Virus record (IMG/VR): IMGVR_UViG_3300025073_000026
Source: a virus
DNA: 62,068 bases
Direction: 5' to 3' (one strand)
The translations under genes and the position numbers were made by a program. Positions 1 through 43,369 of the stretch are shown here, piece after piece (positions within the stretch are counted from its first letter, which is position 1; each line of letters starts with the position of its first letter). A model generated the notes under the pieces. It saw nothing but the letters and a program-made list of their open reading frames with translations. It did no database searches and was not told the origin of the DNA.

Positions 1-1
1 G

Positions 2-382
2 GGGGGGGGGGGGACGGTTGTGAGTAATACTCTAGAGTGGTCTACAGGCGGGCTGAATGTGGATGGATGCAGGGTAATGACAACTAATCGATTGTGCAAC
101 ACCCCTAGACGTGCGGCATCCGCTCCTATTGGTACTTTCGTTAGGAGTAACCCAAGTTCACCTACAGACACATCTAATGGCAGGTGGCCAGCCAATGTGG
201 TTCTTAGCAATGTGTCAGGATATTTCCCTAAAACTGTGAGTATGGGACATCTACCACGAACAGGGAAGACAGCATCTTGTTTTGGTCCGAATAGACACGC
301 TTGTGGGGATGCCAACAACGGCTATAACGACTCTGGCTCCGCGTCTCGTTTCTTCAAATCCTTTCCACAAGTGGATGACTGA
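2..382 (+). CDS. MTase-insert cassette A1 (5'-truncated by window edge, starts in a G13 tract)
   Basis: Frame open from position 2: GGGG-TVVSNTLEWSTGGLNVDGCR...GRWPANVVL...DSGSASRFFK; same three motifs as the other cassettes. Confidence 0.8.
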   Translation, partial: GGGGTVVSNTLEWSTGGLNVDGCRVMTTNRLCNTPRRAASAPIGTFVRSNPSSPTDTSNGRWPANVVLSNVSGYFPKTVSMGHLPRTGKTASCFGPNRHACGDANNGYNDSGSASRFFKSFPQVDD

Positions 383-1053
383 TGCGTCTTATTTCCCTAG
401 CTAGGCGCCCTTTGTCTGAGGGGAGCGTCACGGGCAATGTGGCCCGATGGGGGTGTGGCGGGTTTGATATTGACAGCAATCGGATAAGTTGCGCTGAAGG
501 GCACAGTCCAGCGGCTGATAGAAGAAACACTGCAAGGAAGTCCGGGAATTTCAGTATCTCTGGACGTAAGGCGGCTGAGTCGGTTTCCATCGGGAGATTA
601 GACTACAGGGGATCCTTTGAAACCAGAGCCGCTTTCCGGCCATCTGAACTCTTAGGGCGCTGGCCTGCCAACTTACTTCTTCAGCATGATCTAACCTGTC
701 AAAACCGTGGCATTAAGATTGTCAAAGGAAGCCCCTCTTCGTCCATTCTGCACAATGCTTATGAAGGAACATCCACTACAGGCTTCATTCGAGGTGTTTC
801 ACACTCTGGCAATCAACACGGGGATTCCACCGGAAAAGAGGCCGTGGCCGTTTGGAACTGCGATAAAATGTGCCCTATTTCGGTTCTTGATAGTCAAAGT
901 GGAGTATCCTTCTCAGGGGGGGTTCGGGTCCAGCCAGCAAGGGTTGGAAGAGCAATGGAGATACAGTCAGTGGGTCTTGTAGGAGTACAGGTGGTTTCAA
1001 AGACATTGGAACGGCTTCCCGTTTTTTCAAGCAAGTGCAGGAGACGGATATGA
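382..1053 (+). CDS. MTase-insert cassette A2, frameshifted at G7 (916-922)
   Basis: MRLISLARRP...GRWPANLLLQH..C...WNCDKMCP. The conserved end TASRFFKQVQE lies in another frame after G7, and that frame is the frame of the downstream ORF. Confidence 0.8.
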   Translation: MRLISLARRPLSEGSVTGNVARWGCGGFDIDSNRISCAEGHSPAADRRNTARKSGNFSISGRKAAESVSIGRLDYRGSFETRAAFRPSELLGRWPANLLLQHDLTCQNRGIKIVKGSPSSSILHNAYEGTSTTGFIRGVSHSGNQHGDSTGKEAVAVWNCDKMCPISVLDSQSGVSFSGGVRVQPARVGRAMEIQSVGLVGVQVVSKTLERLPVFSSKCRRRI

Positions 1054-2696
1054 CCACAGCAAACAAGAAGATGCCAAAGGAGATGCTGGAGTATCTTCAC
1101 ACCATGATCATCCCTGATGGGGGTGAGTGTCTCATCCTTTTCAATGGTGAACTGGAGATTACAGACTTTGCGGCTCTCCCCGAAAACCATTATCACGGTA
1201 TCATTGCCCAAGGAACCCCCACACCGGAACAGTCAGAATTGATGCTCAGGTGCTTACGTCCGGGTGGGCATTGCTTGTTGGTCGCCCCGGACATTCAGCC
1301 TACAGGTCATACGGGGGTCTGTAATCTTGAGGATGCTGGCTTTGAAATCCGGGATTCTATCTGCTGGTTGAGACCACCTGTTGATCCTGAGAACCCCAAA
1401 TTCAAGTATTGCGCCAAGGCATCAACGTCTGAGCGCAATGCAGGTATCCATGACCTCCCCACCGGGCAAAAGACCAAGTGCAAATGGACCGGAAAGGATG
1501 TGGAAGAGATACAGGATGTCTACGAGGCATTGCTAGGCGAATTGGACGGAGATGAGAAGGAAACCTTAGCAATGCTTAAAGGTGGGATCAGTAGGGACCA
1601 GATCCCCGATGAACTCATTGACAAGTTTGAGGAGTTCACGGAGTTTGAAGTGCTTGAACGCTGTACCCACCCTTGCTTGCATCCGGATGCCCGGGTAAGA
1701 ACTGAGACGGGATGGCGTCCTATCAAGGAGATCAAAGTTGGGGACAAAGTCCTGTCAGAGGATGGTCAGTACCATTTAGTGACTCACGTATCACAGCATC
1801 CCTACACCAGCCCAAACCTTTTTGAGATACATGTGTTGGGGGTACTAGAGCCTACATTGGCGTCCGACAATCATCCGTTCCTTGTATTACGAGTAGCAGC
1901 AGGTGGTTGGGGAACGAAAGAAGTCTGGGTGCAAGCTTCGGATTTGAGAGAGGGCGATGAAATCCTTTCACTAGAACAAACTGATAACCCACTAGCAATG
2001 TCTCTACTTCATCACAGAGAGAATGGACAAACGCTCATTTGCAACAAGGTCCAAAAAGTCACTCTAGTCCCGTATGTGGGTGATGTGTGGAACCTTTCAG
2101 TAGATGGCTCGCCCACATTCCAAACCATTGTTGGAATGTCTCACAACACGGTCAAACCTATTGAGATAGACGAATTTCTCCTTCAAGGCATCCCTACGGA
2201 TCAGGGTCCGATCCTCGACCCGTTTATCGGGTCTGGGACTACCGGGATAGCATGTTTGAAGACGGGGCATGACTTCATCGGCATTGAGAAGGATGACACC
2301 TACGCACGAATAGCAGATGCTAGATTGAGGCATTGGAACCGTGAGATAGGTAAGTGGAATCCGGCTACGTTAGTATCGGATGTTGTGCCTATCGAGAAGC
2401 CGCAGGATACCCTTGGAATTGACTTCCTTGAGGGGCCGGAAGAGCCTGTGGTCAGAGGGGTATGCACGGCAAAGGTAGAGTCTGTCCCAGAATTGACCAT
2501 CGAATCCGCTAAGATGATGGGAAAGGCTCTGGCGGGATTGGCCCAAATTGTTCTGGACGCTACTGGAGGAGTGGCATCCAAACCATTGGCCCCCCTTAGT
2601 CTGGAGGCCCTCTTTGGTCTTGACGATGAGGGTAAACCGACTACTGTAAAGGAACCTGAGGCTCCTATGAGCCTGGATGACCTGTTGGATAAGTGA
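1050..2696 (+). CDS. N4/N6 DNA methyltransferase-like 'body' protein with mini-intein; lacks DPPY and the ARKP..RFF segment
   Basis: LRCLRPGGH, EDAGFEIRD, YCAKAS, HP|TVKP, DPFIGSGTTG, FIGIE motifs; AGGAG upstream of ATG 1050. Confidence 0.8.
   Translation: MTTANKKMPKEMLEYLHTMIIPDGGECLILFNGELEITDFAALPENHYHGIIAQGTPTPEQSELMLRCLRPGGHCLLVAPDIQPTGHTGVCNLEDAGFEIRDSICWLRPPVDPENPKFKYCAKASTSERNAGIHDLPTGQKTKCKWTGKDVEEIQDVYEALLGELDGDEKETLAMLKGGISRDQIPDELIDKFEEFTEFEVLERCTHPCLHPDARVRTETGWRPIKEIKVGDKVLSEDGQYHLVTHVSQHPYTSPNLFEIHVLGVLEPTLASDNHPFLVLRVAAGGWGTKEVWVQASDLREGDEILSLEQTDNPLAMSLLHHRENGQTLICNKVQKVTLVPYVGDVWNLSVDGSPTFQTIVGMSHNTVKPIEIDEFLLQGIPTDQGPILDPFIGSGTTGIACLKTGHDFIGIEKDDTYARIADARLRHWNREIGKWNPATLVSDVVPIEKPQDTLGIDFLEGPEEPVVRGVCTAKVESVPELTIESAKMMGKALAGLAQIVLDATGGVASKPLAPLSLEALFGLDDEGKPTTVKEPEAPMSLDDLLDK
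1674..2147 (+). mobile_element. Mini-intein (158 aa) in the MTase-like gene
   Basis: Starts CLHPD, has ASDNHPF block B, ends VWNLSV...SHN followed by T; excision restores HPTVKP. Confidence 0.9.
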
Positions 2697-2706
2697 GGTA
2701 GGTGCC

Positions 2707-2907
2707 GTGCCCTTCTACGAGTTCAGTTGCACTAAGTGCAAGCACAGATTTGATACCCTACAGAAGTCCAGTGACCCGCCGCCTCCGTGTCCCAAGTGTG
2801 CTGCTCTGACCAAGAAACTAGTATCCTTGACGACCTTTCACCTAAAAGGTGGTGGGTGGTCAGAGGATGGCTACAGCACGACTGGGAAAAAAGTTACTAC
2901 AGAGTAA
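2707..2907 (+). CDS. FmdB-family zinc-ribbon protein
   Basis: PFYEFSCTKC...F...CPKC....KKLVS...F.LKGGGW. Confidence 0.85.
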   Translation: MPFYEFSCTKCKHRFDTLQKSSDPPPPCPKCAALTKKLVSLTTFHLKGGGWSEDGYSTTGKKVTTE

Positions 2908-2934
2908 GTTAGCTTCGCTACGGTTAGAGTAGTA
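2908..2934 (+). promoter_or_regulatory. Phage promoter motif GTTAG-N16-GTAGTA
   Basis: Exact match to a motif repeated 15 times in the window, intergenic. Confidence 0.75.
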
Positions 2935-2971
2935 ATATGTGGTGTGGCAGCTTTGGGTGGAGGCACCTCAG

Positions 2972-3190
2972 ATGTCTGATAGGTACAATGGCTTCACAGT
3001 AATCCTTGATGAACGTGTCACTGATGAGGAGGCTCAGAGGATCGCAGCTGCCCTCAGTATGGTCAAAGGTGTCTTGGAGGTGAGGCCTCAGACAGCAGAT
3101 GTAGCCGCAGATACTATTATAGAGGCCCGGGTCAGGAGGGAATTGGGGGAGCTATTGTATGCTGTACTGTATCCCCCAAAGAAGCCATGA
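2972..3190 (+). CDS. hypothetical protein
   Basis: GGAGG RBS, stop overlaps next start. Confidence 0.7.
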   Translation: MSDRYNGFTVILDERVTDEEAQRIAAALSMVKGVLEVRPQTADVAADTIIEARVRRELGELLYAVLYPPKKP

Positions 3191-3915
3191 GAATTCTTGT
3201 TCTTTCAGACATTCACTCAGAGTTTCATGTGGACAGTGGCAAGCAATTTGTCTCATCTCTGGATCCCACTGGAATTGATGTTGTTGTCTTAGCAGGTGAC
3301 GCTGGCAATTCGGAGACCTTTGAGAGTTGCCTCCGTTTTACCTGCGAACGTTTCAAGCATGTCATCTTCGTGCCCGGAAATCACGAATATTACTTCTCGG
3401 GATTCGATGTAGTCAACGCAAAACTCAAACGACTTGCAAAAGAAATCCCAAACCTTACCGTTCTCAACAATGCCGTGACAACTATCTCTGGGCAACGATT
3501 TGTGGGGTCCACCATGTGGTTCACGCCGGACCCCATGAGTTTAGTTTATGCCGATGGATTGGCTGATTTCTCCGAAATAGTCAAGTTCCCCCAGAGATTC
3601 GAGGAGATCAATAGGACGGCAGTCAAGTTCCTAAAAGAGAACATTCAGCACGGGGACATTGTGGTCACACATCATTTGCCCACACCGCTGTCCGTGGCGG
3701 GTAGATACAAGAGCAGCAACCTCACTCGCTACTACCTCTGTGACATGTCAGAATTGATCCTACGCGTGGTTCCGTTCCTTTGGATCCATGGGCACGCCCA
3801 CGAACCTGTCGACTATTTCTTCGGGGACACTCGTATCCTGTGCAATCCAGCTGGCTATCCAAGGGAACAAGCTAAAAGACCTTTCAACCCATTAAGGGGT
3901 ATCGTAGAGGTGTAG
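3187..3915 (+). CDS. Calcineurin-like metallophosphoesterase
   Basis: SDIH, AGD, GNHE, THH, HGHAH motifs. Confidence 0.92.
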   Translation: MRILVLSDIHSEFHVDSGKQFVSSLDPTGIDVVVLAGDAGNSETFESCLRFTCERFKHVIFVPGNHEYYFSGFDVVNAKLKRLAKEIPNLTVLNNAVTTISGQRFVGSTMWFTPDPMSLVYADGLADFSEIVKFPQRFEEINRTAVKFLKENIQHGDIVVTHHLPTPLSVAGRYKSSNLTRYYLCDMSELILRVVPFLWIHGHAHEPVDYFFGDTRILCNPAGYPREQAKRPFNPLRGIVEV

Positions 3916-5650: not shown

Positions 5651-8600
5651 ATGGATCTTGCAGACATTCTGGACAGCAGTAATCAGCACGCTCCTATAGA
5701 GAAACTTCCATGGATGAAGAAGAAAAACTTCATCCTCGTGGATTGGACCAAGCCAGATGGACTCGCTATCCTCAAGCAAGCCATGGATGCATGTATTGCA
5801 TCCAAGCTGTACGCTTTGGACATTGAATGCACAGGCCTGGATAATCGTGTCTTCAATGGGAAGACAGTCAAAGACATTGTAGGCATCTGTCTTTCTCCTG
5901 ATGGGGTCACGGGCTACTACATCCCGCTCAGGCATATCCAGAGAATCGAGTCCACTGGGGCAACAAACCTATTGCCTTGCAATGTCCCGCTTCCTGAGTT
6001 TGAGACGGAATTCGTTCGACTCCTGGATAGTCCTGCAGTAGCCATCTTTCACAACGGAAAGTTTGACCAAGAGTTCCTCACCTTCAATGGGCGAGATAGG
6101 CCGTGGGGCGACTGGGATCTACCTGGGAAATGGGAAGACACCCTCATCCTGGCCTATCTGGAGAATTCCAGGGCAAGACGCTTTGGGCTGAAACCTTTGG
6201 CCGATACGATCCTTGGCCAGAAGATGATTGAGTTGAAGGATCTCTTCCCATTAAAGTACAAAGGTCCCCTGGATTTCTCTCTGCTCAATCCGTCCGATGA
6301 TGATGCAGTCGTTTGGTATGGTGCCTCCGATGCGGTGTGTACCTACCAGCTGTACGAGCATTTCCTACCATTGGTGGTGACCTGTGAGGATTCCCAAAGC
6401 ACTATCTACAAGATCGAGAAGTCTTGTGTGGGGGCTACTCGATGGATGGAAAGGAATCGAGTCTATGTTGATAAAGCCAAAGTTGCAGAACTCATACAGA
6501 TTGGACAGAAAGAATGCTTTGAGTCCATGCAAGAGGTCTACCGTTTAGCCTCTGAGATCATCGGTAGGGACATTACCCCACTGCATTTCTACCTCGTTGA
6601 ACGGGAATTCCAGAAGACCAACCCCACCTTCAGTATCGACAAGGGTGGGAATATGGCCTTGATCGAGGCACTAAAGGATGCCCGTGCGGAGTGCAACAAC
6701 AAGGTACGAATTGCGACGGACTCCTTCTTGTACGAGAAGTCCCGACGATTGCCCATCACCAAGAAAAAGAAGGATGGTGGGGAAAGGACATATCCAGCTG
6801 AGTACGATATCATGTCGCCTCAGCAGTTCGGGCTGATGCTGGAAGAACTGGAAGTTCCAGGTTTAGCTTACACAGAGAAATCTGGGCAAGTACAGACATC
6901 TGCTGATGTATTGGATGAAATTCTGACCAAGGCAGCTGGTAAACTCCCTTGGGTCGCTAAAGTCATTCGTTTCAGGGAAACACAAAAGGCACTCTCGACT
7001 TTTCTACTACCGCTGTGGAATGATACGTGCCCTGTAGACGATACGGTGCGAATTGGTTTCAATGGACTCAAAACAGACACGGGAAGATTCTCTACGTCCA
7101 AACCGAAGAACCCAACCGAAGATGGCGGCACTTCTTACTTCATGCAGGGGACTCCTGCCACGTATGACCCCAATCGACCCGCCTGTATGACTCGCATCAG
7201 AGAATGTTTCACCCCACGGAAGAAGGATAGCTTCATTGTCGCGATCGACTTTAGTGGCGAAGAACTTCGAATTGTAACCAACCTGAGTCGTGAACCAAAG
7301 TGGCTCTCGGAATTCTTTCACTGTGCTGGTTGCAACCGGATGTTCGATCGGGATGTTCCACCCCCCAGATATTGCCCCGATTGTGGCTCTGACAAGATTG
7401 GCGACCTGCACACTTTGACTGCGTTGGGTATCTATGGGGCAGATGCACAGAAGAGAGACGATTGGAAGGCATTGAGAGGATACGGGAAGTGTCTTCACTT
7501 GGATACACTCATAGTCAGGGATGGTGTTCTGCAAACTCTCGGGACACTACCAACAGGGCCGGAAGATACTTTCATGCCTCTCCTAGGGGTGGTCCGGGGG
7601 GAGACAGGACCAGTCCCCTTAGTGGAGGTCTACAATGGGGGCTTGCAAGACCTCTTCTACATCGTGACTAATCGTGGGATTGTAGCCTGCACTGAGAGAC
7701 ATACGTTCAAGGTGGGTGATGGAACCCTTCAATCGCTGGCAGGGGATCTTGATGTCGCATGGGTAATACAGACAGCTGGCATCCCAACCCTTATAGATGC
7801 CCCCTACCAACGGATCAGTGCGCATGAAATGGCTGCGTTCCATGACCCAGACCATGAAACTAGTTACCTTGCAGGCGCCTATCAAGGAGACGCTAATGGT
7901 GGTGCTCTAGATCGAGTAGAAATGCCAATGGCTGGTCTCATCGGCGTCTTACCATTCCTCCGAGGCAATAAATCACGAGTCCCAGCCTTCGTTCTTTCAG
8001 CTGGTAGAGAAGCAATGCTTCACTACATGGCAGGGCTTTGGGATATCATGGGGGAAGTATCAGACACTGATGGGGTGGGTAGGTGGGCAACTTTTGATAT
8101 TGGGTTTGCGTCCCAAGTAGCAACAGTAGCCTCTGCACTAGGTATGGAACCGTGGGTAGAAGTCGAGTGGGAGACTACTCTCACACGACTGAAATTCCGG
8201 GTAACGTTGCCAGCCGATACGATGTGGCAAATTGGACCATATATGAGGTACCCAGTTAATGCGGCTCGACTACAGGATTCACGGGAAAGGCACCCCAGAG
8301 GCCCCAACAGAATTCTAGGCATATATCCGGCTGGCAAACATCCTTGTCTGGACCTTCATGTTGATGACCCATCCCATCTATACTGGGCCAATGGGCTCGT
8401 CTCCCATAACAGTACGAACTTCGCCCTCTGTTACGGCGGTGGGGGCCATGCGGTATGTGCGGCAACAGGTGTGGACGAGAATGAAGGGTGGAGAATCAAA
8501 CGGACGTTCGATGCTACATACAAAGGGCTCCAGGATTGGTGGAAGCGTACACAGGACTTTGGTCGTAAGACAGGGTACGTAAAGACTGCTTTTGGTAGGC

Positions 8601-9508
8601 ACTATCCTGTCCCAGATATCCAGCTCCCGAAATTTGGTAAGGACGCAAAAGGTGCCCCCCGGAATAATATGGCCTTCATTGCTAAAGCCGAACGCAATGC
8701 AGTTAATGGCCCCGTACAATCATCTGGAGCAGATATTGTTAAGCTAGCTATGACGATGATCCATCGACACTGCAAAAAGAAGGGGTGGCTGGACAAGGCA
8801 CGCATGATCATCACCATGCACGATGAATTGGTTTTCGACATGGATGCAGATATTATGGAGGATGCCATTCAAGACTTCACCCACCTTATGACCAACAACC
8901 CTCTAATCGGAAAGTTAGGTTGGCCCATCCCCCTGTTAGTTGATGTAGATGTGGGGCATGACTGGACTGTACCTTGGAGCCTCACTGAGATCGCCCATAC
9001 AGGGAAATGGCCTGAAGAGTTGAAGCCCTGGTTCCCAAAGATGGTGGCAGCTCAGGAGCCCAAAGTTCTTACCATAGAACCCCCGTCCAAAGAATTGCCG
9101 CCACAGGGGGGAGACCTACCCCCCCAAGAGGGACTACCCGTTGCCCCTGAATCCACCCCCATTTCCGTTGTTGTCCAAGACGTGCCCTCTGATAAGGGAT
9201 TGGGTTTCGAACTAAGTGACAAGATCGACGAGACATCCAAACCCGTCCCGGAAAAGAAGTCGTCTAGTACTTCGGGCAAGAAGAAGGGGGCATTCAAATT
9301 TGTGATCAAACAGCCCTTAACTTTAGGGACCCTTGAGCGACTAGCTTACGTTATTGCCCGGACACATAATAAGGGCAACCACATACTTCAACTAGAAACT
9401 CCTTCCGGGGATGTGTTATCATGGACAGACGGGCTACCGGATGACCTGAAAGATGTCCGGGTCAATCCACAGCTTTTCGAACTCCTAGCAAAGGAAGTGG
9501 GTCTATGA
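5651..9508 (+). CDS. polA: DNA polymerase family A with 3'-5' exonuclease, intein-containing
   Basis: ExoI DIECTG, FHNGKFD, TGRFS, motif A DFSGEELR, motif B R...K|STNFALCYG, NGPVQSSGAD, motif C MHDEL. Confidence 0.95.
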   Translation: MDLADILDSSNQHAPIEKLPWMKKKNFILVDWTKPDGLAILKQAMDACIASKLYALDIECTGLDNRVFNGKTVKDIVGICLSPDGVTGYYIPLRHIQRIESTGATNLLPCNVPLPEFETEFVRLLDSPAVAIFHNGKFDQEFLTFNGRDRPWGDWDLPGKWEDTLILAYLENSRARRFGLKPLADTILGQKMIELKDLFPLKYKGPLDFSLLNPSDDDAVVWYGASDAVCTYQLYEHFLPLVVTCEDSQSTIYKIEKSCVGATRWMERNRVYVDKAKVAELIQIGQKECFESMQEVYRLASEIIGRDITPLHFYLVEREFQKTNPTFSIDKGGNMALIEALKDARAECNNKVRIATDSFLYEKSRRLPITKKKKDGGERTYPAEYDIMSPQQFGLMLEELEVPGLAYTEKSGQVQTSADVLDEILTKAAGKLPWVAKVIRFRETQKALSTFLLPLWNDTCPVDDTVRIGFNGLKTDTGRFSTSKPKNPTEDGGTSYFMQGTPATYDPNRPACMTRIRECFTPRKKDSFIVAIDFSGEELRIVTNLSREPKWLSEFFHCAGCNRMFDRDVPPPRYCPDCGSDKIGDLHTLTALGIYGADAQKRDDWKALRGYGKCLHLDTLIVRDGVLQTLGTLPTGPEDTFMPLLGVVRGETGPVPLVEVYNGGLQDLFYIVTNRGIVACTERHTFKVGDGTLQSLAGDLDVAWVIQTAGIPTLIDAPYQRISAHEMAAFHDPDHETSYLAGAYQGDANGGALDRVEMPMAGLIGVLPFLRGNKSRVPAFVLSAGREAMLHYMAGLWDIMGEVSDTDGVGRWATFDIGFASQVATVASALGMEPWVEVEWETTLTRLKFRVTLPADTMWQIGPYMRYPVNAARLQDSRERHPRGPNRILGIYPAGKHPCLDLHVDDPSHLYWANGLVSHNSTNFALCYGGGGHAVCAATGVDENEGWRIKRTFDATYKGLQDWWKRTQDFGRKTGYVKTAFGRHYPVPDIQLPKFGKDAKGAPRNNMAFIAKAERNAVNGPVQSSGADIVKLAMTMIHRHCKKKGWLDKARMIITMHDELVFDMDADIMEDAIQDFTHLMTNNPLIGKLGWPIPLLVDVDVGHDWTVPWSLTEIAHTGKWPEELKPWFPKMVAAQEPKVLTIEPPSKELPPQGGDLPPQEGLPVAPESTPISVVVQDVPSDKGLGFELSDKIDETSKPVPEKKSSSTSGKKKGAFKFVIKQPLTLGTLERLAYVIARTHNKGNHILQLETPSGDVLSWTDGLPDDLKDVRVNPQLFELLAKEVGL
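7490..8410 (+). mobile_element. Intein (307 aa) in polymerase motif B with degenerate LAGLIDADG endonuclease
   Basis: CLHLDT...CTERHTF...YMAGLWD...LDLHV...GLVSHN followed by S. Confidence 0.9.
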
Positions 9509-11180: not shown

Positions 11181-11563
11181 AAACTTGGACGCTTAGGATC
11201 ACTGGGGGGCAAATATTTCAGATGCAACTGCAAGATCACCCCACTTTGCAACACAATGGGGCTGAGACCCTCTGGCAAGCGACTATGGACATGCAACGAG
11301 TCCGAGAGATCGCAGAATCCATTCATGTGAACAGCGGGGCAACGGTTTCTGTTTATGCTACCAATGTTGAAGACACACCCAAGGTACCTAAAATGAATGG
11401 GTGGCCAACTGAACGATGCCCGATCTGTTACTTCTTTGAGATGGACACGTCAAACCACTGTGGGGTGGCAGACTGGCCGGTACCAGTCCTCAAGAGTGCT
11501 ATGCAACGTGGTGGTGACAAAGCCATACAGGACCGCCAAGAATGCCCCAGGAACAAACGATAG
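11177..11563 (+). CDS. hypothetical protein
   Basis: ATGA-coupled ORF. Confidence 0.6.
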   Translation: MKTWTLRITGGQIFQMQLQDHPTLQHNGAETLWQATMDMQRVREIAESIHVNSGATVSVYATNVEDTPKVPKMNGWPTERCPICYFFEMDTSNHCGVADWPVPVLKSAMQRGGDKAIQDRQECPRNKR

Positions 11564-12324
11564 AGTACAACTCTGGCACAATGTATCAATCGGATGCTAT
11601 CGAAGCTCTACGGACGCTTCCTGATAGGTCAGTCGATTTAATCCTAACGGATCCGCCCTACTCTTCCTTAGAGAAGTGGCGGGCCATAGGAACGACGACT
11701 CGCCTGAAAGTGTCTGATGCTTCATCTAATGAATGGTTTCCAGTAGTTGAGAACAGTTACTTCGTGGATTTCTTCAAAGAATGCTACCGAATTCTCAGGA
11801 ATAATTCTCACATCTATGTTTTCTGTGACTTTGAGACTGCTCTAGCGATTGACCCCATGGTGACCGGCGCCGGGTTCACTCGAAAGAAGCCTGTCATCTG
11901 GAACAAGGTGGGCACCCTGGTGGAAGAATGCTGCCCCAATTGCAAACGTCCAGTGGGTGCTAGACGGAAACCTGGGTCTCCAGGCATGGGATATCCCTAC
12001 AGGTCATGCTATGAATTGATATATTTCGGTTCCAAAGGGGACCGTCCAGTAACTGGATCAAGGAACGTCCGGGATGTGTTGGAGTGCGAGCGAATAAAGG
12101 GGGACGGGGCTTACCCTACAGAGAAACCCATCGAACTACTCCAAGTTCTTTTAGGTCAGTCCTCAGTGCCAGATAGTCTGATCGTGGACCCCTTTGCTGG
12201 GAGTGGGTCAACAATCCTGGCCGCTACAGGACTCGGCAGACGGGCTTTCGGTTTTGACATACAACAAGCCACAGTGGATCGTTTCAACAATCGGCCCATC
12301 GATGTGATCAATCTTTCTGCCTAA
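11542..12324 (+). CDS. N6/N4 DNA methyltransferase (beta class)
   Basis: TDPPY, YPTEKP, DPFAGSG. Confidence 0.92.
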   Translation: MPQEQTIEYNSGTMYQSDAIEALRTLPDRSVDLILTDPPYSSLEKWRAIGTTTRLKVSDASSNEWFPVVENSYFVDFFKECYRILRNNSHIYVFCDFETALAIDPMVTGAGFTRKKPVIWNKVGTLVEECCPNCKRPVGARRKPGSPGMGYPYRSCYELIYFGSKGDRPVTGSRNVRDVLECERIKGDGAYPTEKPIELLQVLLGQSSVPDSLIVDPFAGSGSTILAATGLGRRAFGFDIQQATVDRFNNRPIDVINLSA

Positions 12325-15856: not shown

Positions 15857-16228
15857 CTACCTCGTTTTCACTGAATAAAGGATCGCTACCTGCTCCTTGG
15901 GAGTCAGTTTGGAGAGGGCATTCTCCAGATTCTGAGTCCACCGCATGACCACTCCAAGAGGTATCCGATAATCGGAGTTTCCCCTGATGATGTCTGGAGT
16001 AATGTCCTTCGGACACTTTCCGGAACCCACGTACAGCAAAGGGGCAATGTTATCGTGCAACCAAGTCCACCCGGCGACTACTCCCACATGGAAGGGTTCG
16101 TCTTCGTTGGACTTGCTGATCACCTTTGCACCTGAGAAGCTGGAGATGAAATGGCGTTGTTTGGAGGACGTACTTTCTGGGAGAATGGGGGTTATCGGCA
16201 ATGAAATCCGACTCTGCAACGGTCCCAT
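15857..16228 (-). CDS. hypothetical protein
   Basis: ORF in minus block, overlaps tnpB end. Confidence 0.5.
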   Translation of the reverse strand: MGPLQSRISLPITPILPESTSSKQRHFISSFSGAKVISKSNEDEPFHVGVVAGWTWLHDNIAPLLYVGSGKCPKDITPDIIRGNSDYRIPLGVVMRWTQNLENALSKLTPKEQVAILYSVKTR

Positions 16229-17376
16229 TCTATTGGGATCTTTGCCAACCGTACCCCACGGTTGAGTACCTCATTTGCTGAATTCACATCCCTATGGACC
16301 ACATACCCGCACGCACAACGATGCTCGCGCTCATGCAGTTTCTTGGGAACATCAGCCCCACACTTTGCACATACCTGAGACGTCCCCCTAGGATTGACGG
16401 GCACCGTCCATTTACCAGCCTCTTCCGCTTTGTAAATGACCATGCTGGTCAACATCCCCCAAGACGCATCCCCAATGTTCCTGTGTATGCCCTTTGCCTT
16501 CCCCGTTGGGGACGGCAACTGCATCAACCCTTTAATGTTCAAATCCTCAAAGCAAATGTAGTCAAACCTCTCCACGATGTCCTTAGAGACAACGTGGAGA
16601 AATTCCCTACGTTGATTAGCCACTCGTTCATGCAATTTGTTGAGTGCTGCCTTAGCTTTGGCCCTACGTCTAGATCGCTTGTTGGTCTTCAGGGAGAGCC
16701 GATGCTGCGCTTCTTTGAGCCTAGCAAGGCTGTCCCTTAACCATCTGGGATTCCCGACTATTGTACCATCATCAAAGGTAAGGAGGGTTTCGAGTCCGAA
16801 ATCCATCCCTACGGGATGTTTTGCGACAGGAACTTTGGCAGGTGCTTCACCTATGTCAGAGGTAATGGCGACGAACCATTTTCTACCTGTCCGTTTGATG
16901 GAGAAACCTATGGGTTGCCCATGAAAGGGACGATGGAAGTTGACTTTGATACTGACTTTACCGATTTTGATGATGGATTTGTCAGTATCGATGCTCCAGC
17001 CCGTACCGGGCGGGGCGGCGATGCTGAAGGAATCATACCGGTTAGCACTCTTGAACCTTGGATACCCAGGCTCTTCGACATTCTTTTTGACTCTACGGAA
17101 GAAGCCTTTGAATGCCCGGTCCAACCGGACGAGGCAGTCAACGGCGATACGACGTGGGAGTTCGGCAAATTCGGGGTGTTCAGAACGAATTTGAGTCAAG
17201 GAGATCTGTTGATCATTACAGGAGATCGAAATACGTTTGCGTTTCCAGTGAGTACGTCGCTCTTCCAGAGCGGCGTTGTACAGGGAACGGCAGAGGTTGA
17301 GGGTGTGGTTGAGCCAGCGGAAGGATTGGTCATTGGGTTTGAGTTGGTATTTGAAGGTTCGGATGAGCCTTTTCAT
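16192..17376 (-). CDS. tnpB: TnpB-family RNA-guided endonuclease (IS200/IS605-type), no TnpA
   Basis: N-terminal TFKYQLKP..CRSLYN; RuvC GMDFG, FEDL, HRDVNSA; CAKC/CACG zinc ribbon. Confidence 0.92.
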   Translation of the reverse strand: MKRLIRTFKYQLKPNDQSFRWLNHTLNLCRSLYNAALEERRTHWKRKRISISCNDQQISLTQIRSEHPEFAELPRRIAVDCLVRLDRAFKGFFRRVKKNVEEPGYPRFKSANRYDSFSIAAPPGTGWSIDTDKSIIKIGKVSIKVNFHRPFHGQPIGFSIKRTGRKWFVAITSDIGEAPAKVPVAKHPVGMDFGLETLLTFDDGTIVGNPRWLRDSLARLKEAQHRLSLKTNKRSRRRAKAKAALNKLHERVANQRREFLHVVSKDIVERFDYICFEDLNIKGLMQLPSPTGKAKGIHRNIGDASWGMLTSMVIYKAEEAGKWTVPVNPRGTSQVCAKCGADVPKKLHEREHRCACGYVVHRDVNSANEVLNRGVRLAKIPIEWDRCRVGFHCR

Positions 17377-17383
17377 GGGGCGG

Positions 17384-17412
17384 ATCGTAACATTCAATTG
17401 GAAAAAGGTCAA
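17384..17412 (-). promoter_or_regulatory. sigma70-like promoter of tnpB (TTGACC-N17-TACGAT, extended TG)
   Basis: Near-consensus with 17-bp spacer; predicted start at or near the ATG (leaderless). Confidence 0.5.
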
Positions 17413-18023: not shown

Positions 18024-18377
18024 ATGGCTAACTTAGTGCCGTCTTACCACGAGAAGGTTTTTGTTGCCGTGCCGGGATTCAAGCACCCCCACTACCGGGT
18101 GTGGTTCACTTCCCGTAAGGCCTTCCAGGACTACACTGCCGGTCGCCCGGGGATAGTTCTGCCCGGTACGACTTTGCAGGGATTCGTCCGGGTCATGAAA
18201 AGCCCAACTGGCTGTTCTCCCAAGTGGTTCCTCTTTGATACTGAAAATGGAACGCTTAATGGTCGTAGGTACCTGTGGGAGTTTGGAACCCGGCGAGAAG
18301 CACGGGAGCACAAGAAATTGCAGAATAGCGATCCGAATAATGTGAAGTTGGTTGGGCCCTTCCAGTACATCGGGTGA
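18024..18377 (+). CDS. hypothetical protein
   Basis: RBS, after promoter. Confidence 0.65.
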   Translation: MANLVPSYHEKVFVAVPGFKHPHYRVWFTSRKAFQDYTAGRPGIVLPGTTLQGFVRVMKSPTGCSPKWFLFDTENGTLNGRRYLWEFGTRREAREHKKLQNSDPNNVKLVGPFQYIG

Positions 18378-18384
18378 TGCAGAA

Positions 18385-19056
18385 GTGACTAGAACCCAAG
18401 GTGGCATTTCAACAACGAACCTAGTGCTATCCGCCCACGTTGGTGGCAATGCAGATGTGTTCCCCAACATCCTGCAACTTCATGTGCCGGATGGGGCTAC
18501 TATAGCCGATGTAACCTATGGTAAAGGAGTGTTCTGGCGGAACGTCAATAGGCTCAGATACAAGTTGCTGGCAACGGACATCCAGTCAGGAGTCGATTGC
18601 AGGCACCTTCCCTACAAGGATGCCACCATTGATGCCGTGGTCATAGACCCGCCCTATATGGAAGGGAGTGCCCGGAATACCGCTTACCAGACAGGGCAGC
18701 AGGCGTTCTCTGAGTACTATGGGCTACAGGCGATACAGCAAACCGGGGACAGGTACTCAGGAGCGATCCTACAGCTTTACAAGGATGCCTGTAAAGAGGC
18801 TGACCGGGTGCTGAGATCATCCGGTGTCCTTATCCTAAAGTGTCAGGACGAGGTGTGCGCTAATAAGCAACGATTGACCCATGTAGATATCATCAACCAC
18901 ATGACCGACCTTGGGTGGTTCTGCAAAGACCTATTCGTGGTTGTGCGGAGTAATAGACCTGTAGTGAGCCGGATGAAGAAACAGGTGCATGCCCGCAAAA
19001 ACCACAGTTACTTTCTGGTATTCACTCGACGGAAGTTCCATAGAACAGAGGATTGA
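18385..19056 (+). CDS. DNA amino-methyltransferase (short)
   Basis: DVTYGKGVFW SAM-binding-like motif, IDPPY. Confidence 0.85.
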   Translation: MTRTQGGISTTNLVLSAHVGGNADVFPNILQLHVPDGATIADVTYGKGVFWRNVNRLRYKLLATDIQSGVDCRHLPYKDATIDAVVIDPPYMEGSARNTAYQTGQQAFSEYYGLQAIQQTGDRYSGAILQLYKDACKEADRVLRSSGVLILKCQDEVCANKQRLTHVDIINHMTDLGWFCKDLFVVVRSNRPVVSRMKKQVHARKNHSYFLVFTRRKFHRTED

Positions 19057-19574: not shown

Positions 19575-20789
19575 GTGCAGGGTATTGCTATGCACAAGGG
19601 GGCATACGCTTTGTTCTCTTTACCTTTCAAGACAACTATATACGTTGGGGATGCTCTCCAACGGCTAAAGGCACTACCTGATAACTCCGTCCATTGCTGT
19701 GTGACTAGCCCGCCCTATTGGGGATTGCGGTCGTATTTACCGGAGGGGCATCCTGACAAGGGGCTGGAGCAGGGGCTGGAGGAATCCCCGGATGCCTATG
19801 TGGAAAGAATGGTAGGAGTATTCCGAGAAGTACACCGGGTACTGAGAAAAAACGGAACCTGTTGGCTCAATATCGGGGATAGTTATGCCAGTGCTTGGGC
19901 TTGTAATCGTCGCAACATGATTGGCAATGGATCACTTGATGACGGTAAGCGAGATTCACGTCCAAACAGATTGGTGGGGGATTTGAAGGAAAAGGATCTC
20001 GTAGGAATCCCATGGATGTTAGCCTTTGCTCTTCGTAAAGATGGATGGTGCTTACGTCAAGACATCATCTGGTCCAAAAGAAATTGCATGCCAGAATCAG
20101 TTTCTGATCGCTGCACCAAAGCACATGAGTTGATCTTCCTACTGGCAAAGTCGGTAAAGTATTTCTACGATGCCGAAGCCATCAAGGAAGCAGCCAGTGA
20201 TGAGAGCCACGGTGCCCTAGAGGGTGGGTGTGGAGTAAAAGCACAAACTACAGGGAACCATAGTGGCCCGTTAGGACTTGTGCCCTCTAATGGGAAACGT
20301 AATGCCCGTTCCGTCTGGGATATCCCGACTTCTCCCTTCTCCGGGGCACATTTTGCTACGATGCCCGTTCAACTGGCTACCCGTTGTATCAAGGCTGGAA
20401 CATCTGAGAAAGGGTGCTGCTCAGTCTGTGGCTCCCCTTGGACACGTATCCTTGACAAAGAACCCGGCCGATGTGACCGGCCTAATCATCCCTATGACCC
20501 CAATCGACCAGATGGAATGTCCCTAAGAGGCGGGAGATTATCACCAGGAAAAGTGCTATCTACAGAATGGGTGCCTACTTGTAAATGTACCTCTGATAGT
20601 ATCCCTATCCCCTGCACTGTCCTAGATCCTTTCTTTGGAGCAGGGACCACTGGTCTTGCTGCTATGCAGCTTGGCCGGTCTGCAATAGGCATCGAGTTGA
20701 ACCAAGACTATGCCGAGATCGCCTGCAAACGATTGACTGATAACTTTGGAGTCATTGGCGATGATAGCCTCGTGGAGGTAGCCCATTGA
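19575..20789 (+). CDS. N4/N6 DNA methyltransferase (SPPY)
   Basis: TSPPY, HFATMP, CCSVC..CKC insert, DPFFGAGTTG. Confidence 0.93.
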   Translation: MQGIAMHKGAYALFSLPFKTTIYVGDALQRLKALPDNSVHCCVTSPPYWGLRSYLPEGHPDKGLEQGLEESPDAYVERMVGVFREVHRVLRKNGTCWLNIGDSYASAWACNRRNMIGNGSLDDGKRDSRPNRLVGDLKEKDLVGIPWMLAFALRKDGWCLRQDIIWSKRNCMPESVSDRCTKAHELIFLLAKSVKYFYDAEAIKEAASDESHGALEGGCGVKAQTTGNHSGPLGLVPSNGKRNARSVWDIPTSPFSGAHFATMPVQLATRCIKAGTSEKGCCSVCGSPWTRILDKEPGRCDRPNHPYDPNRPDGMSLRGGRLSPGKVLSTEWVPTCKCTSDSIPIPCTVLDPFFGAGTTGLAAMQLGRSAIGIELNQDYAEIACKRLTDNFGVIGDDSLVEVAH

Positions 20790-22006
20790 TCAGCATACCG
20801 AACAAAGTGATGATCCATACAGGCAACTGCCTATCCGTGTTGAAGTCCCTACCGGCAGAATCAATCCACTGTGTTGTCACTTCACCTCCGTACTTTGGCC
20901 TCCGCAACTATGGCAACCCCGATCAAATAGGGCTTGAATCATCCCCACAGGAATATGTGGCCCATCTTGTAGAGGTCTTCCGACAGATCAAACGAGTCTT
21001 GCGCCCAGACGGGACTGTATGGCTCAATATTGGAGATAGCTATGCAACCCAACCTGGTAAAGGTTCCAATGTGCCTCAGACCAAATGGCAGGCTAACTCC
21101 TACCCGGATAGTGCACCACATCGTTCCATTTCAATGCCCGGACTCAAACCCAAGGACTTGATCGGTATCCCGTGGAGACTCGCTCTAGCCCTCCAGGAAG
21201 ATGGGTGGTGGTTGCGATCGGAGATCATATGGGAGAAGTTCAACGGCCTTCCTGAATCAGTAACAGATAGAGTAACTCGCTCTCACGAGCACGTTTTCAT
21301 GCTGACCAAATCATCCAAGTATTTCTACGATGCAACTGCTATCCTGGAAGAGCCCCAAAGTGGGCCTTCCGACGTCAAAAAGATGTTAGAAAAGAAAGAA
21401 CGGATAGGAGGTAAGCACAAAACCCTGGTGGACTCACTATCCAAGGCATCCGCAACAACCAATGTGGGGACTCATCGAGGTGTGGGTGACCCATTCTTCA
21501 GGAACAAACGATCAGTGTGGACGATAGGACTGCAACCCTTCCATGGGGGCCATTTTGCCGTCATGCCATCTAAATTGGCCGAACCCTGTATTCTGGCTGG
21601 GACTTCCGAGAAGGGTTGCTGCCCAACCTGTGGTGCTCCTTGGGTACGACTAGTCAAGAAATGGGAGGCTCCATCTGAGAAGGAATACCATCCGGTCAAT
21701 ACAGAGATGGATTGGCTATCTCAGGATGATGACCTGACCGGACCAGTTTTGCATACCGAGCAAACTATTGCTGATCGTACTCTTGGGTGGGAACCTACCT
21801 GTAAATGCTCGGACAATACGTCCCCTACCCCCTGCACTGTCCTAGACCCATTTTTTGGAGTAGGAACTACAGCTCTCGTCTCTATGCTCCATGGCCGTTC
21901 TTGTGTGGGGATAGAATTGAACCCCGAATATGTGAAGATGGCTGTGAAGCGACTGGAGGATGAATTTGGGGTAATAGGGATGAATGCAGTTGAGGTAGCA
22001 GGATGA
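20786..22006 (+). CDS. N4/N6 DNA methyltransferase (SPPY)
   Basis: TSPPY, HFAVMP, CCPTC..CKC insert, DPFFGVGTT. Confidence 0.93.
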   Translation: MISIPNKVMIHTGNCLSVLKSLPAESIHCVVTSPPYFGLRNYGNPDQIGLESSPQEYVAHLVEVFRQIKRVLRPDGTVWLNIGDSYATQPGKGSNVPQTKWQANSYPDSAPHRSISMPGLKPKDLIGIPWRLALALQEDGWWLRSEIIWEKFNGLPESVTDRVTRSHEHVFMLTKSSKYFYDATAILEEPQSGPSDVKKMLEKKERIGGKHKTLVDSLSKASATTNVGTHRGVGDPFFRNKRSVWTIGLQPFHGGHFAVMPSKLAEPCILAGTSEKGCCPTCGAPWVRLVKKWEAPSEKEYHPVNTEMDWLSQDDDLTGPVLHTEQTIADRTLGWEPTCKCSDNTSPTPCTVLDPFFGVGTTALVSMLHGRSCVGIELNPEYVKMAVKRLEDEFGVIGMNAVEVAG

Positions 22007-22200: not shown

Positions 22201-22558
22201 TATGCTGGTCTGGGATACCGACAGTGATGCTAAGAGTATCTTTGATGTGCTGGACCCTACGGTGCAAGGGAAATTGGAAAGGGATATCTCCGGATGCCCG
22301 GTCTGCCATGCAGACTTGACCACTCCCATTAGTGGGGATTTCCTCTACTTTCCGAATAGGATCACGTTCGGGAGACTTTTGAGTTGTGGCTGTGACGTCA
22401 AGGTGAGGGTACGTATGATGCTCAAGCCCTGTCCTCAGCCGGAGAGACCACTACGGGAGAACAGTGATACTTGGTTTGAGCAAGACTGTTATGGAAATGC
22501 TTTGAGATATTGGCGGGCACATTACGGGGTCCAGACATACGAGTTGATCGACTCATGA
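22178..22558 (+). CDS. hypothetical protein
   Basis: Stop overlaps first cassette start. Confidence 0.55.
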   Translation: MSQMRASDMLVWDTDSDAKSIFDVLDPTVQGKLERDISGCPVCHADLTTPISGDFLYFPNRITFGRLLSCGCDVKVRVRMMLKPCPQPERPLRENSDTWFEQDCYGNALRYWRAHYGVQTYELIDS

Positions 22559-22917
22559 CATTGCTGATCTCCATAGCTAGGAAACCCTTGAGTGAGGCCA
22601 CAGTAGCCCGTAACGTCCTCAATACAGGGGGGGGGGCATTGAACATAGATAGGTGTAGGCACCAAAGGCAGGATACCTATTGTTACCCAAATGGCCCCGG
22701 AGGTAAAGCCTATGGGTTTGGTACTCTGAGATCAATTATGGTACGTCCAAATCCCACGGGATCTAACTCCATGGGGGCGTGGCCGACCAATGTTGTTCTA
22801 GGTGGTACCATTAGCACCTTATTCCCTGATGCCCTATTCCGTAAAGCAAGTGTTTCTAATGATGTGAATCTGGCGAACCGCTCGGCGGCAAGGTACTTCA
22901 AACAGGTCCAGGAATGA
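22555..22917 (+). CDS. MTase-insert cassette B1 (short class; G10 in frame)
   Basis: MTLLISIARKP...GGGALNIDRCR...GAWPTNVVL...SAARYFKQ. Confidence 0.85.
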   Translation: MTLLISIARKPLSEATVARNVLNTGGGALNIDRCRHQRQDTYCYPNGPGGKAYGFGTLRSIMVRPNPTGSNSMGAWPTNVVLGGTISTLFPDALFRKASVSNDVNLANRSAARYFKQVQE

Positions 22918-23553
22918 ACCTTCTGATCTCCATAGCTAGGAAACCTGTATCTGAAAGCAGCATCACCCGTAATGTGGCGGCATACGAAAGCGGCGGGCTT
23001 AATGTAGACGCCGCAAGACTGTTTTGCGGTACAGAGCATATGCGTGGGATTGTCAAAGGAATGACAGATGGGGGCATGACTGCAGCAGACGGAAGAACAG
23101 GAAAATCCCTTGGCAGATTTGAACCCGGCAAGGTATTCCAAGCCACGGATTCTCCCCTCGGTCGTTGGCCCGCTAACGCGCTCTTAGAGCATAGACCCGA
23201 TTGCAAGGAAACAGGTACTATGAAGGTAACCCGGAAGGAATGGTCTCGGTTCGCTGGTTCTTCCGGACCCGATAAGGTGTACGGGGGGGGGGGGGGTGGC
23301 GGCAGACAGACAGACAGACAGACAGTCAGTGGAAGAGCATCGGGCTATCTGGCAATGTGCTGAAGGTTGCCCTGTGAAAGAAATGGACAGGCAAAGCGGT
23401 ACTCTACATTCGAATGGCAACATTGAGTTGACTACATCTTCTAACAAAGATGTGATCTACACAGGAGGGTGGCTTCCCCGGACTCGGATTATCAGAACCT
23501 TTGATAATGGGGGTGGTGCCTCCAGGTTCTTCAAACAGGTGCAGCAAGAATGA
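22914..23553 (+). pseudogene. MTase-insert cassette B2, frameshifted at G14 + (CAGA)5
   Basis: N-half in frame 22914..; C-half (WQCAEGCP...GGASRFFKQ) in the +1 frame ending 23553. Confidence 0.8.
23283..23330 (+). repeat. Simple sequence repeats G14 and (CAGA)5(CAGT)2
   Basis: Read directly: G 23283-23296; CAGA x5 23303-23322. Confidence 0.95.
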
Positions 23554-23992
23554 CGTTATTGATAGCTATAGCTAGGAAGCCTTTGGGTGAAGGTCACACA
23601 GTAGCACTTAACGTCCTTAGTACAGGGGGGGGGCGTTGAATATAGATAGGTGTAGAGTTGGTGCTGAGTGTACCACGACGAGGCATTCCTCCTCCTCCTC
23701 CTTTTTCAGTGGGAAGATAGGCGAAATCCAACCCATCGTTGAGAAATACTCAACGGGCAGTGATTTGGGCAGATGGCCAGCCAACCTACTTCTTGTGATA
23801 GATCGCCAGATAACGAAGTCGTTCCCGAGAGTGCACGGGGCAGGTTCCTCTAGGGCTGCGTGGTGTCATGGTAAATCTGACACCAGTGTATATGGAAGAT
23901 ATGGTGGGGATGACGTGGGGGGCCATAGGTTTGGTGACTCTGGCTCTTCATTTCGCTTCTTTAAATCCTTTTCGTCTAAGGACGCTGAATGA
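23550..23992 (+). pseudogene. MTase-insert cassette B3, frameshifted at G9 (23625-23633)
   Basis: MTLLIAIARKP...LSTGGG then stop; one extra G restores ALNIDRCR...GRWPAN...RFFK. Confidence 0.85.
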
Positions 23993-24462
23993 CCCTACTG
24001 ATAGCCATAGCTAGGAAACCAATCACAGGAAGAACGATAACAGAGAACGTCCTTAAGTGGAGAGGGGGCGGGATAAATGTAGATGCCAGTCGGGTGGCAA
24101 CAACCCAAGGGGATCGCCAACAAATGCTAGAAATGTCCCGCGGATTCGTTGGAAGGAGATTTGGTAAGCCAGAGTCAATGAACTATGGTTATGAAGGAAG
24201 CATGCCAGTTAAAACTTTGAGCGAACCTTCTCCACTCGGTAGGTGGCCAGCCAACATCGTACTTGAAAAAGACGTGAGCGTGATTGATGGCTTTCCCGTG
24301 ACGTCTAGCGGAAATTTGCTTACGACTCATTTCCTCAAAGCTTCTGAGAACACATCAATGTCTGGCCCAAATCAGGGACGCAACCCCCGTCAAAATTGGG
24401 GTGGCAATATTGGCTCTGCTGCTAGACTGTTCCAGCAGTTCCCATTTGAGGATGTGGAATGA
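23989..24462 (+). CDS. MTase-insert cassette B4
   Basis: MTLLIAIARKP...GRWPAN...SAARLFQ. Confidence 0.85.
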   Translation: MTLLIAIARKPITGRTITENVLKWRGGGINVDASRVATTQGDRQQMLEMSRGFVGRRFGKPESMNYGYEGSMPVKTLSEPSPLGRWPANIVLEKDVSVIDGFPVTSSGNLLTTHFLKASENTSMSGPNQGRNPRQNWGGNIGSAARLFQQFPFEDVE

Positions 24463-42089: not shown

Positions 42090-42092
42090 GGT

Positions 42093-43343: not shown

Positions 43344-43369
43344 TACACCGACCCCCGCATACACCTTTG

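Follow-up and report, generated by a model that had tools for sequence, protein, structure and literature searches.

A stretch of viral DNA of 62,068 nt (IMG/VR record IMGVR_UViG_3300025073_000026; the whole stretch is hereafter called the window) encodes, at positions 1050-2696 of the plus strand, a relative of the beta-class DNA methylases that we term the body. The body carries an intact S-adenosylmethionine (SAM)-binding half and has neither the catalytic motif IV (DPPY) nor the target-recognising domain (TRD) of those enzymes, and we consider it, with moderate confidence, to be the SAM-binding subunit that all versions of a three-part combinatorial methylase share. In the mechanism proposed here, intein splicing would yield a two-unit protein, consisting of a pseudo half-domain (a motif X/beta1 remnant on an N-half without motif IV) and the intact SAM-binding C-half, and a modular beta-class N6-adenine/N4-cytosine DNA methylase would be built around the spliced body, its one common subunit. 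The other parts would be encoded separately and in multiple copies, as TRD modules (short open reading frames, ORFs, here called cassettes) and as DPPY N-halves without a C-half of their own. Docking of a DPPY N-half on the C-half of the body would complete the catalytic cleft, and the TRD module paired with it would set the target sequence to be methylated. As TRDs and N-halves are separate and multiplied, one body could serve many specificities and so shield the phage DNA from many host restriction systems.

What the body retains and what it lacks

The body ORF (548 aa plus stop) comprises, in order, an X'/I' remnant, a pseudo N-half, a helical insert, an intein, a C-half and an acidic tail, and the protein runs MTTANKKMPKEMLEYLHTMIIPDGGECLILF ... 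HYHGIIAQGTPTPEQ ... EDAGFEIRDSICWL-RPPVDPENPK-FKYCAKASTSERNAG ... CTHP-intein-TVKP ... ILDPFIGSGTTG. The program-made ORF list places its start at GTG 1035; ATG 1050 is the likelier start, being preceded by AGGAG at 1039-1043 and matched from there onwards by a database protein, P0001, which is 100% identical over 548 aa and is recorded on 17 contigs, the longest of 140.6 kb. To describe the body and its relatives, four module hidden Markov models (HMMs) were built, for the DPPY N-half (NH), the cassette-type DNA-reading module (TRD), the N part of the body (PSN) and the C-half (CH).

The C-half (2148-2363, plus strand) carries motifs X, I (DPFIGSG, 2217-2237), II and III. It matches the CH model (E 1.7e-36) and the Pfam family PF01555 (N6_N4_Mtase), the latter with 53.5 bits against a gathering threshold of 26.7, yet only over model positions 139-219; in the intein-free relative P0170 the same family is matched over positions 40-219, with the DPPY start skipped. 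Sequence matches to the C-half in the PDB are M.BceJIV, M1.HpyAVI (DpnA) and CcrM. The SAM-binding DPFIGSGTTG and, once the intein is removed, HPTVKP are intact, as a preliminary description of this DNA, made from its letters alone, had stated. The 208-aa N part of the body gave no match in Pfam (searched with the whole ORF), PHROGs or NCBIfam at E up to 0.01.

The PSN module (1068-1448, plus strand; E 1.8e-52), which consists of the X'/I' remnant and the pseudo N-half and has FKYCAKASTSERNAG at its end, is homologous to the DPPY N-half by profile-profile comparison with hhalign (probability 99.4%, E 5e-21, 95 columns). The alignment sets 'svHG.I..' of PSN on 'svDaiVtD' of the N-half and deletes the PPYG loop, so that the absence of DPPY and the presence of HGIIAQGTP (1194-1220, plus strand) at its position, both noticed in the preliminary description, are upheld. 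Another placement, with LILFNGE at the motif IV position and the N-terminus as the usual pre-DPPY helix, was rejected, as both the profile alignment and the X'/I' HMM favour HGIIAQGTP.

Ahead of the pseudo N-half lies a degenerate motif X helix followed by beta1, MPKEMLEYLHTMIIPDGGECLILFN, without the GSG loop (1071-1145, plus strand). When body residues 8-32 were turned into a dedicated HMM, the best match ended at most 8 aa from DPFxGSG in 69 of 71 canonical methylases, which agrees with the earlier suggestion that the N-terminus holds a second, degenerate copy of motif X/I. The likeness emerged only with this short model, and the whole PSN gave no match to the C-half by hhalign (probability 0.2%).

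At the junction where canonical enzymes have the remainder of the N-half plus the TRD, the body passes from EDAGFEIRDSICWL through the linker RPPVDPENPK into FKYCAKAS (1329-1424, plus strand). This direct passage had been described before, and all of the quoted strings are present, with a linker of exactly 10 aa. The canonical relatives P0025, P0026 and P0028 have the order DPPY..EDAGFEIRD..W..GFPKSL..ALKPA.EPI.LARKP-TRD-GRFPAN-SRFFYCAKASTSERNAG-HPTVKP..LMEYL..TPPGG.VLDPFMGSGTTG, and in them ~190 aa separate the two junction points, which confirms the long stretch that had been described for canonical enzymes. The further claim that the missing segment is what the cassettes encode holds for the TRD part and not for the remainder. 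PSN spans columns 17-138 of the 227 in the N-half profile, and the distal N-half (GFPKSL...ALKPA.EPI; columns 139-227) is found in neither body nor cassettes; with both this segment and the TRD absent, the body is short of more than cassettes could supply. The body thus departs from three defining features of the beta class, namely motif IV, an internal TRD and a single fold (the fold being judged on a model of the relative P0170), and it would appear to act as a subunit and not as an enzyme.

Family-wide conservation and module architecture

Relatives were collected by a word-indexed search with the N part, which returned 104 proteins, and by a profile search of 1.84 billion representatives, from which 150 matches were listed. 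A full PSN was present in 137 of the 243 metagenomic proteins fetched, and these relatives share the layout of the body at 31-56% identity. The most frequent architecture is TRD-PSN-CH (92 proteins), followed by PSN-CH (31), TRD-TRD-PSN-CH (6) and forms with three TRDs (2); rarer ones are NH-TRD-PSN-CH (3), PSN-CH-NH, TRD-PSN-CH-NH and TRD-PSN (1 each). A cassette-type TRD is fused N-terminally in 105 of the 137, and the other 32 are body-only like the window protein. The occurrence of fusions in several orders links the three module types (NH, TRD and PSN-CH). In P0105 and P0114, three full TRD modules stand in tandem before one body within a single polypeptide, a covalent counterpart of the cassette array in the window.

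None of the relatives (0 of 137) has a catalytic [DNS]PP[YFWH] within the PSN module; the pattern occurs in six of the proteins, where five instances belong to an extra N-half module and the sixth is a chance occurrence in the X' region. An alignment of 108 family sequences has 14 invariant columns and a further 19 that are nearly so. Conservation reaches 90% or more at the motif I residues D390, P391, F392, G394, S395 and G396, HPTVKP, EDxGFEIRD and YxxKAS..ERxAG show this level or full invariance, and the junction region keeps E94, D95, G97, E99, R101, D102, Y120 and K123. No residue of the motif IV stretch (H49-P57) reaches 90%, a pattern that fits the SAM-binding scaffold without catalytic motif IV of the preliminary description. 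Eroded partners of the MettL14/MTA9 type are not known to use SAM; the body is not of that type, for its motif IV is eroded but its motif I is intact and conserved.

These data also bear on whether the body is simply the decaying remnant of a canonical methylase, as its lack of DPPY and TRD and the frameshift in the neighbouring cassette might imply. This is very improbable, given that the layout is common to 137 diverged relatives, that the 14 and 19 columns given above are held at or near invariance and that the ORF is open for 548 aa around an intact-looking intein. Judged by its sequence the body is not decaying, and neutral evolution, which the preliminary description had considered, is excluded by the conservation in the 108 aligned family members. 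It is a clear case of a pseudo-enzyme domain under selection.

The family comprises at least 137 clusters, all of them metagenomic. No cultured phage in the GenBank phage collection searched has a body (the best tblastn match covers 25% of the N part), and none of the viral protein models in BFVD has its overall architecture (best TMq 0.39). Matches in the ESM Atlas score at most 0.87 and serve as leads only. A literature search within a limited collection found no publication describing this layout.

Predicted structures of two relatives

The rare fusion NH-TRD-PSN-CH offers a view of how the modules may pack. An AlphaFold model of one such protein, P0223, has a mean predicted local distance difference test score (pLDDT) of 88.5 and a predicted template modelling score (pTM) of 0.89. 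Canonical methylases superpose whole on its residues 1 to ~480, that is, on the N-half plus the C-half: M.BceJIV (9c3s_A) with Z 22.9 and a root-mean-square deviation (rmsd) of 4.2 over 218 aligned residues, CcrM with Z 22.8, and M1.HpyAVI (5hfj_A) with Z 21.3 and rmsd 2.5 over 190 of 201 residues. Since whole canonical enzymes superpose on this region, N-half and C-half together make one canonical fold in the model, which suggests that a DPPY half, and not the body's own pseudo N-half, packs on the C-half of the body as in the canonical beta class.

The fold of the body alone was judged on P0170, a body-only, intein-free relative that is 56% identical to the window protein and stands in for it here (pLDDT 89.5, pTM 0.75). 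Beta-class enzymes align only to its residues 110-273 (Z 6.6-6.9, ~90 aligned), for example CcrM with Z 6.9 and EcoP15I Mod with Z 6.8 and rmsd 2.1 over 97 residues. For residues 1-111, generic Rossmann methylases are the only matches (Z at most 8.3), with beta1 followed by beta4-beta5. As predicted, then, the body on its own would not form the canonical beta-class fold or cleft. The matches fall in two separate parts, and X'/beta1' and the pseudo N-half would accordingly pack into a half-domain of their own, leaving the C-half without its canonical partner. Taken with the P0223 model, an architecture of this kind, A-T-[X'b1']-[A']-C, suggests that a tandem duplication has left a domain-swapped relic, in which the active A would pair with C and X'b1' with A'. 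In the P0223 model, strands are predicted both at the end of the N-half (135-142) and at the start of the TRD (152-159). Where canonical enzymes possess a single strand of this kind (EPI.LARKP), the body family has it twice, once at either side of the split, and this duplicated strand may serve as a docking element.

Free N-halves beside related bodies

Related loci with flanking DNA were examined for the parts that the body lacks. A true body was found in six of 239 fetched loci, on three viral contigs (L001, L002 and L003), one metagenome contig (L080) and two binned contigs (L160 and L161), and the remainder were canonical methylases; among these was L097, which was rejected as a body locus despite a weak PSN match. 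All six loci contain free DPPY N-halves that end '...ALKPA.EP....K(P)' without a C-half, together with free TRD ORFs. This third module, the free DPPY N-half, was unforeseen in the preliminary description.

The closest relative, L161 (61% identity in the best segment), has two N-halves, a TRD-body fusion and then the series NH TRD NH TRD NH TRD TRD TRD. In L003 the body is followed by six N-halves and six TRDs, in L080 one N-half precedes a TRD-body fusion and five TRDs, and in L002 one N-half precedes a TRD-body fusion and a TRD. L001 holds two free N-halves, one of them with an intein-like insert, plus an NH-TRD-PSN-CH fusion. L160 has N-halves (at least two) and TRDs on both sides of two bodies; these two PSN-CH bodies lie in tandem (1122-2667) on a short contig, and the other records have one body each. 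The number of free N-halves per related locus thus ranges from 1 to 6, and in the whole records (G001-G003) one body each stands against 3, 1 and 6 N-halves and 3, 3 and 6 TRDs. N-halves without a C-half, found beside a lone C-half without a working N-half, suggest that the two fit together. The simpler half-enzymes are represented among the PHROGs families, where the free N-halves match phrog_6025 and where phrog_3008 (TRD plus C-half) is matched by the cassettes at positions 2-91 and by the C part of the body at positions 152-212.

The co-occurrence of such bodies with cassettes, raised as a question in the preliminary description, holds in the loci examined, with free TRD ORFs beside the body in all six. 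That the cassettes complement the body stands in part: a cassette-type module is fused to most relatives and free in every related locus, but the cassettes also lack DPPY and so cannot restore catalysis. As a matter of annotation, bodies, free N-halves and cassettes are at present each labelled 'DNA methylase' or 'hypothetical', and probably none of them can work alone.

Two other explanations leave the free N-halves aside. In the first, the body plus a TRD, joined in cis by an eight-G run (described below) or assembled in trans, would be a self-sufficient methylase with an unconventional catalytic loop, and the free N-halves would belong to other enzymes. The predominance of TRD-PSN-CH without an N-half (92 of 137), the recreation of such a form here by G8 and the strong conservation of EDxGFEIRD and YxxKAS..ERxAG would all suit it. 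Yet the motif IV position is not conserved at the 90% level and has no aromatic residue, the body-only model is without a canonical cleft, and the free N-halves in all six loci have no C-half but that of the body, so that we regard self-sufficiency as unlikely, though not far-fetched. In the second, the body plus a TRD would be a non-catalytic, SAM-binding and sequence-specific DNA-binding protein, such as a site-occluding anti-restriction factor or a regulator, whose pseudo-enzyme state is its function. Erosion of motif IV is indeed family-wide, and inactive partners with an eroded motif IV are known, MettL14 and MTA9 being examples (PMC7544214). A non-catalytic role, which we hold to be quite unlikely, leaves unexplained both the free N-halves in six of six loci and the packing of N-half on C-half in the P0223 model.

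Cassette arrays and the G-run before the body

At least eight cassettes lie in the window, two directly upstream of the body and six at 22.5-25.7 kb. The cassette next to the body (382-1053, plus strand) matches the TRD HMM with E 9e-36 over 382-927; the one before it (2-382, plus strand; E 2.1e-13) is cut at its 5' side by the window start. Positions 1-13 there are 13 G in place of the expected MTLLIAIARKP start; the cause is either a break of the assembly at slippery sequence or an error of sequencing, and what would follow upstream of the array is hidden by it. The second array, ~20 kb from the body (22555-25708, plus strand; identified with the TRD HMM), consists of six cassettes with overlapping stop and start codons. 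Cassette flanks are conserved at the DNA level, both in the ~30 nt encoding MTLLIAIARKP and at the SRFFKQ end.

A run of seven G at 916-922 (plus strand) changes the frame of the last cassette. With G7 the cassette is a 223-aa ORF ending at ATGA, in which the ATG of the body at 1050 overlaps the TGA (1051-1053) of the current cassette frame. The last 42 codons of 382-1053, ending ASRFFKQVQETD, lie in the body frame, and there the conserved cassette end ...GTASRFFKQVQETD matches TRD HMM positions 168-194 (E 4e-8). A run of G5, G8 or G11 would yield a single TRD-body ORF of 770-772 aa (771 aa for G8), and the G8-type fusion is the commonest form in the PSN family. All 17 contigs with P0001 carry the one 548-aa form, and the assemblies therefore show the unfused state.

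These features could also be read as a store of sequence: the cassettes would be mainly a donor library, from which recombination at the conserved flanks moves one cassette into the slot before the body and the G-run sets the fusion. The flanks conserved in DNA, the slot one G away from an in-frame fusion and the arrays at two sites of the window are compatible with such a library. However, every cassette has a start codon of its own, which overlaps the stop of the one before, and the majority are open, the free TRD ORFs and multi-TRD fusions of relatives argue for expression over silent storage, no recombinase was linked to the arrays, and no variant arrangement was seen, P0001 having one 548-aa form on 17 contigs. 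We consider a donor library improbable.

Limits and extension of the three-part model

Several observations weigh against a shared subunit assembled in trans with free N-halves and TRDs. A free DPPY N-half is absent from the 62-kb window by tblastn and by HMM scan, an absence that concerns the window, which begins inside a cassette array, and not the whole phage; any N-half modules of this phage would lie outside it. An exact 55-nt match to the window start was found in no viral contig and in no metagenome contig. Most relatives appear to hold their TRD in cis, and for the adjacent cassette trans assembly would not be required, as this cassette may itself act in cis, being one extra G from fusion. 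The share of fused forms (105 of 137) is in turn inflated, the ranking profile having contained TRD columns. The alignment behind the P0223 model held 19 canonical methylases, whose N-half/C-half covariation could bias the packing, and the superpositions are known by their first and last aligned residues, not by coordinates or contacts. The role of the pseudo half-domain is left unexplained.

A more far-reaching version of the three-part methylase can be offered tentatively. Large uncultured phages might run a combinatorial methylase in which the body accepts in trans any DPPY half-subunit and any reader, G-runs set which readers are made or fused, and the pseudo half-domain, a remnant of a domain-swapped tandem dimer, now serves as the docking platform. 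If so, a dozen small genes could yield tens of specificities, and the modules would form a natural parts set for programmable adenine or cytosine-N4 methylation.

Intein and C-terminal tail

Motif X is interrupted by a mini-intein of 158 aa (aa 209-366; 1674-2147, plus strand) that matches Pfam Hint_2 with 35.1 bits against a cut-off of 28.4. Inteins are described by conserved blocks, such as block B with its (T/S)xxH, and here the signature reads CLHPDARV..SDNHPF..GMSHN followed by T, with Cys1, the SDNHPF block, the terminal HN and the +1 Thr, so that all the features of an intein are found in the sequence and the earlier impression of an apparently intact intein is sustained. It splits HP/TVKP in motif X, ahead of the intact DPFIGSGTTG; it looks splice-competent, and splicing would restore HPTVKP. 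Larger inteins occupy the same HP/TVKP site in P0009, P0010, P0019 and P0022. In L001 (6169-8079), one free DPPY N-half is broken after WAYGC by a ~425-aa insert ending VTGNS, an intein by eye, which suggests that inteins target several modules of the methylase system. A DNA polymerase I-like ORF of the window (5651-9508, plus strand) likewise has an intein-like insert by eye (GKCLHLDTL ... LVSHNS), which would be a second intein in this phage.

Behind the C-half, the body ends in a low-complexity acidic tail (2364-2693, plus strand) with two peptides of the consensus SL[ED].L[FL]. These are SLEALFG and MSLDDLLDK (2590-2693), and nearly all relatives close with L.DLFG behind an acidic linker. 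The peptides resemble the bacterial sliding-clamp-binding motif, QL[SD]LF, and might tether the enzyme to the replisome. A promoter and terminator scan of positions 1-3300 gave fewer sites than shuffled sequence and is uninformative.

Genomic setting

In its gene content the window resembles a segment of the genome of a large uncultured phage: it encodes a family A DNA polymerase with an apparent intein, an ORF like a primase and numerous methylase genes. Five more complete genes for DNA methylases with DPPY or SPPY, assigned to PHROG 67 or 24333, lie at 11542-12324, 18352-19056, 19575-20789 and 20786-22006 (plus strand) and at 50305-51699 (minus strand), suggesting that the phage is heavily invested in DNA methylation. 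Between methylase genes, an ORF at 16192-17412 (minus strand) resembles by eye a TnpB/OrfB-type transposon-associated nuclease with a CxxC...CxxC end. Two ORFs at 41139-43364 (minus strand) resemble by eye an NAD synthetase (SGGVDS) and a nicotinate/nicotinamide phosphoribosyltransferase, which together would provide the phage with NAD salvage.

Comparison with known methylases

Phage methylases are a main escape route from restriction, and their known means of gaining breadth are many whole genes, non-specific enzymes or, in cytosine-5 (C5) enzymes, tandem reading domains. Canonical beta-class enzymes (PF01555: M.BceJIV, CcrM, M.RsrI, M1.HpyAVI) are single polypeptides with the order IV-V-VI-VII-VIII-TRD-X-I-II-III. 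The C-half of the body is a clear member of this class and its pseudo N-half is homologous to theirs, but the body is without motif IV, the motif VIII strand and the TRD, and has an extra X/beta1 remnant.

Pairing of active with inactive beta-class units, or a division of labour between them, occurs in MettL3-MettL14, the ciliate MTA1-MTA9 and the M.EcoP15I Mod dimer, as described in PMC7544214. The present family is like them in that an active unit retains, as its structural partner, one whose motif IV has eroded. Each protomer of those pairs is a full fold, whereas in the present family the eroded half is fused to the sole SAM-binding half and the active half would be a separate small protein.

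Other systems share single traits of the arrangement. For example, M.AquI and M.EcoHK31I are reportedly natural two-polypeptide cytosine-5 methylases, and thus likewise DNA methylases assembled from separately encoded pieces; they differ in belonging to the C5 class and in having two pieces and one specificity, without arrays or a pseudo-domain. The multispecific C5 methylases of the Bacillus phages SPR, phi3T, rho11s and H2 combine one catalytic core with several target-recognising domains, much as 8 of the 137 body relatives carry two or three tandem TRDs, but in the Bacillus phages the TRDs lie inside one protein, whereas here they are mostly separate ORFs and the catalytic half is multiplied too. 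Similarly, Type I systems (HsdM/HsdS) and phase-variable Type I and III systems place specificity in a subunit of its own and switch specificity genes through simple repeats, in which they resemble the cassettes and the G-run; they differ in being of the gamma class, restriction-linked and host-encoded. A simpler two-piece split is already catalogued among phage proteins as phrog_6025 and phrog_3008; that catalogue has no entry for the pseudo half-domain or for a split into three. The layout described here would be a variant of known split and multispecific methylases and, if the reading of the body as a shared subunit is true, an amino-methylase split three ways, whose cofactor core is common to arrays of exchangeable catalytic and reading modules, would be a new solution to the breadth that phages otherwise gain by the routes above.

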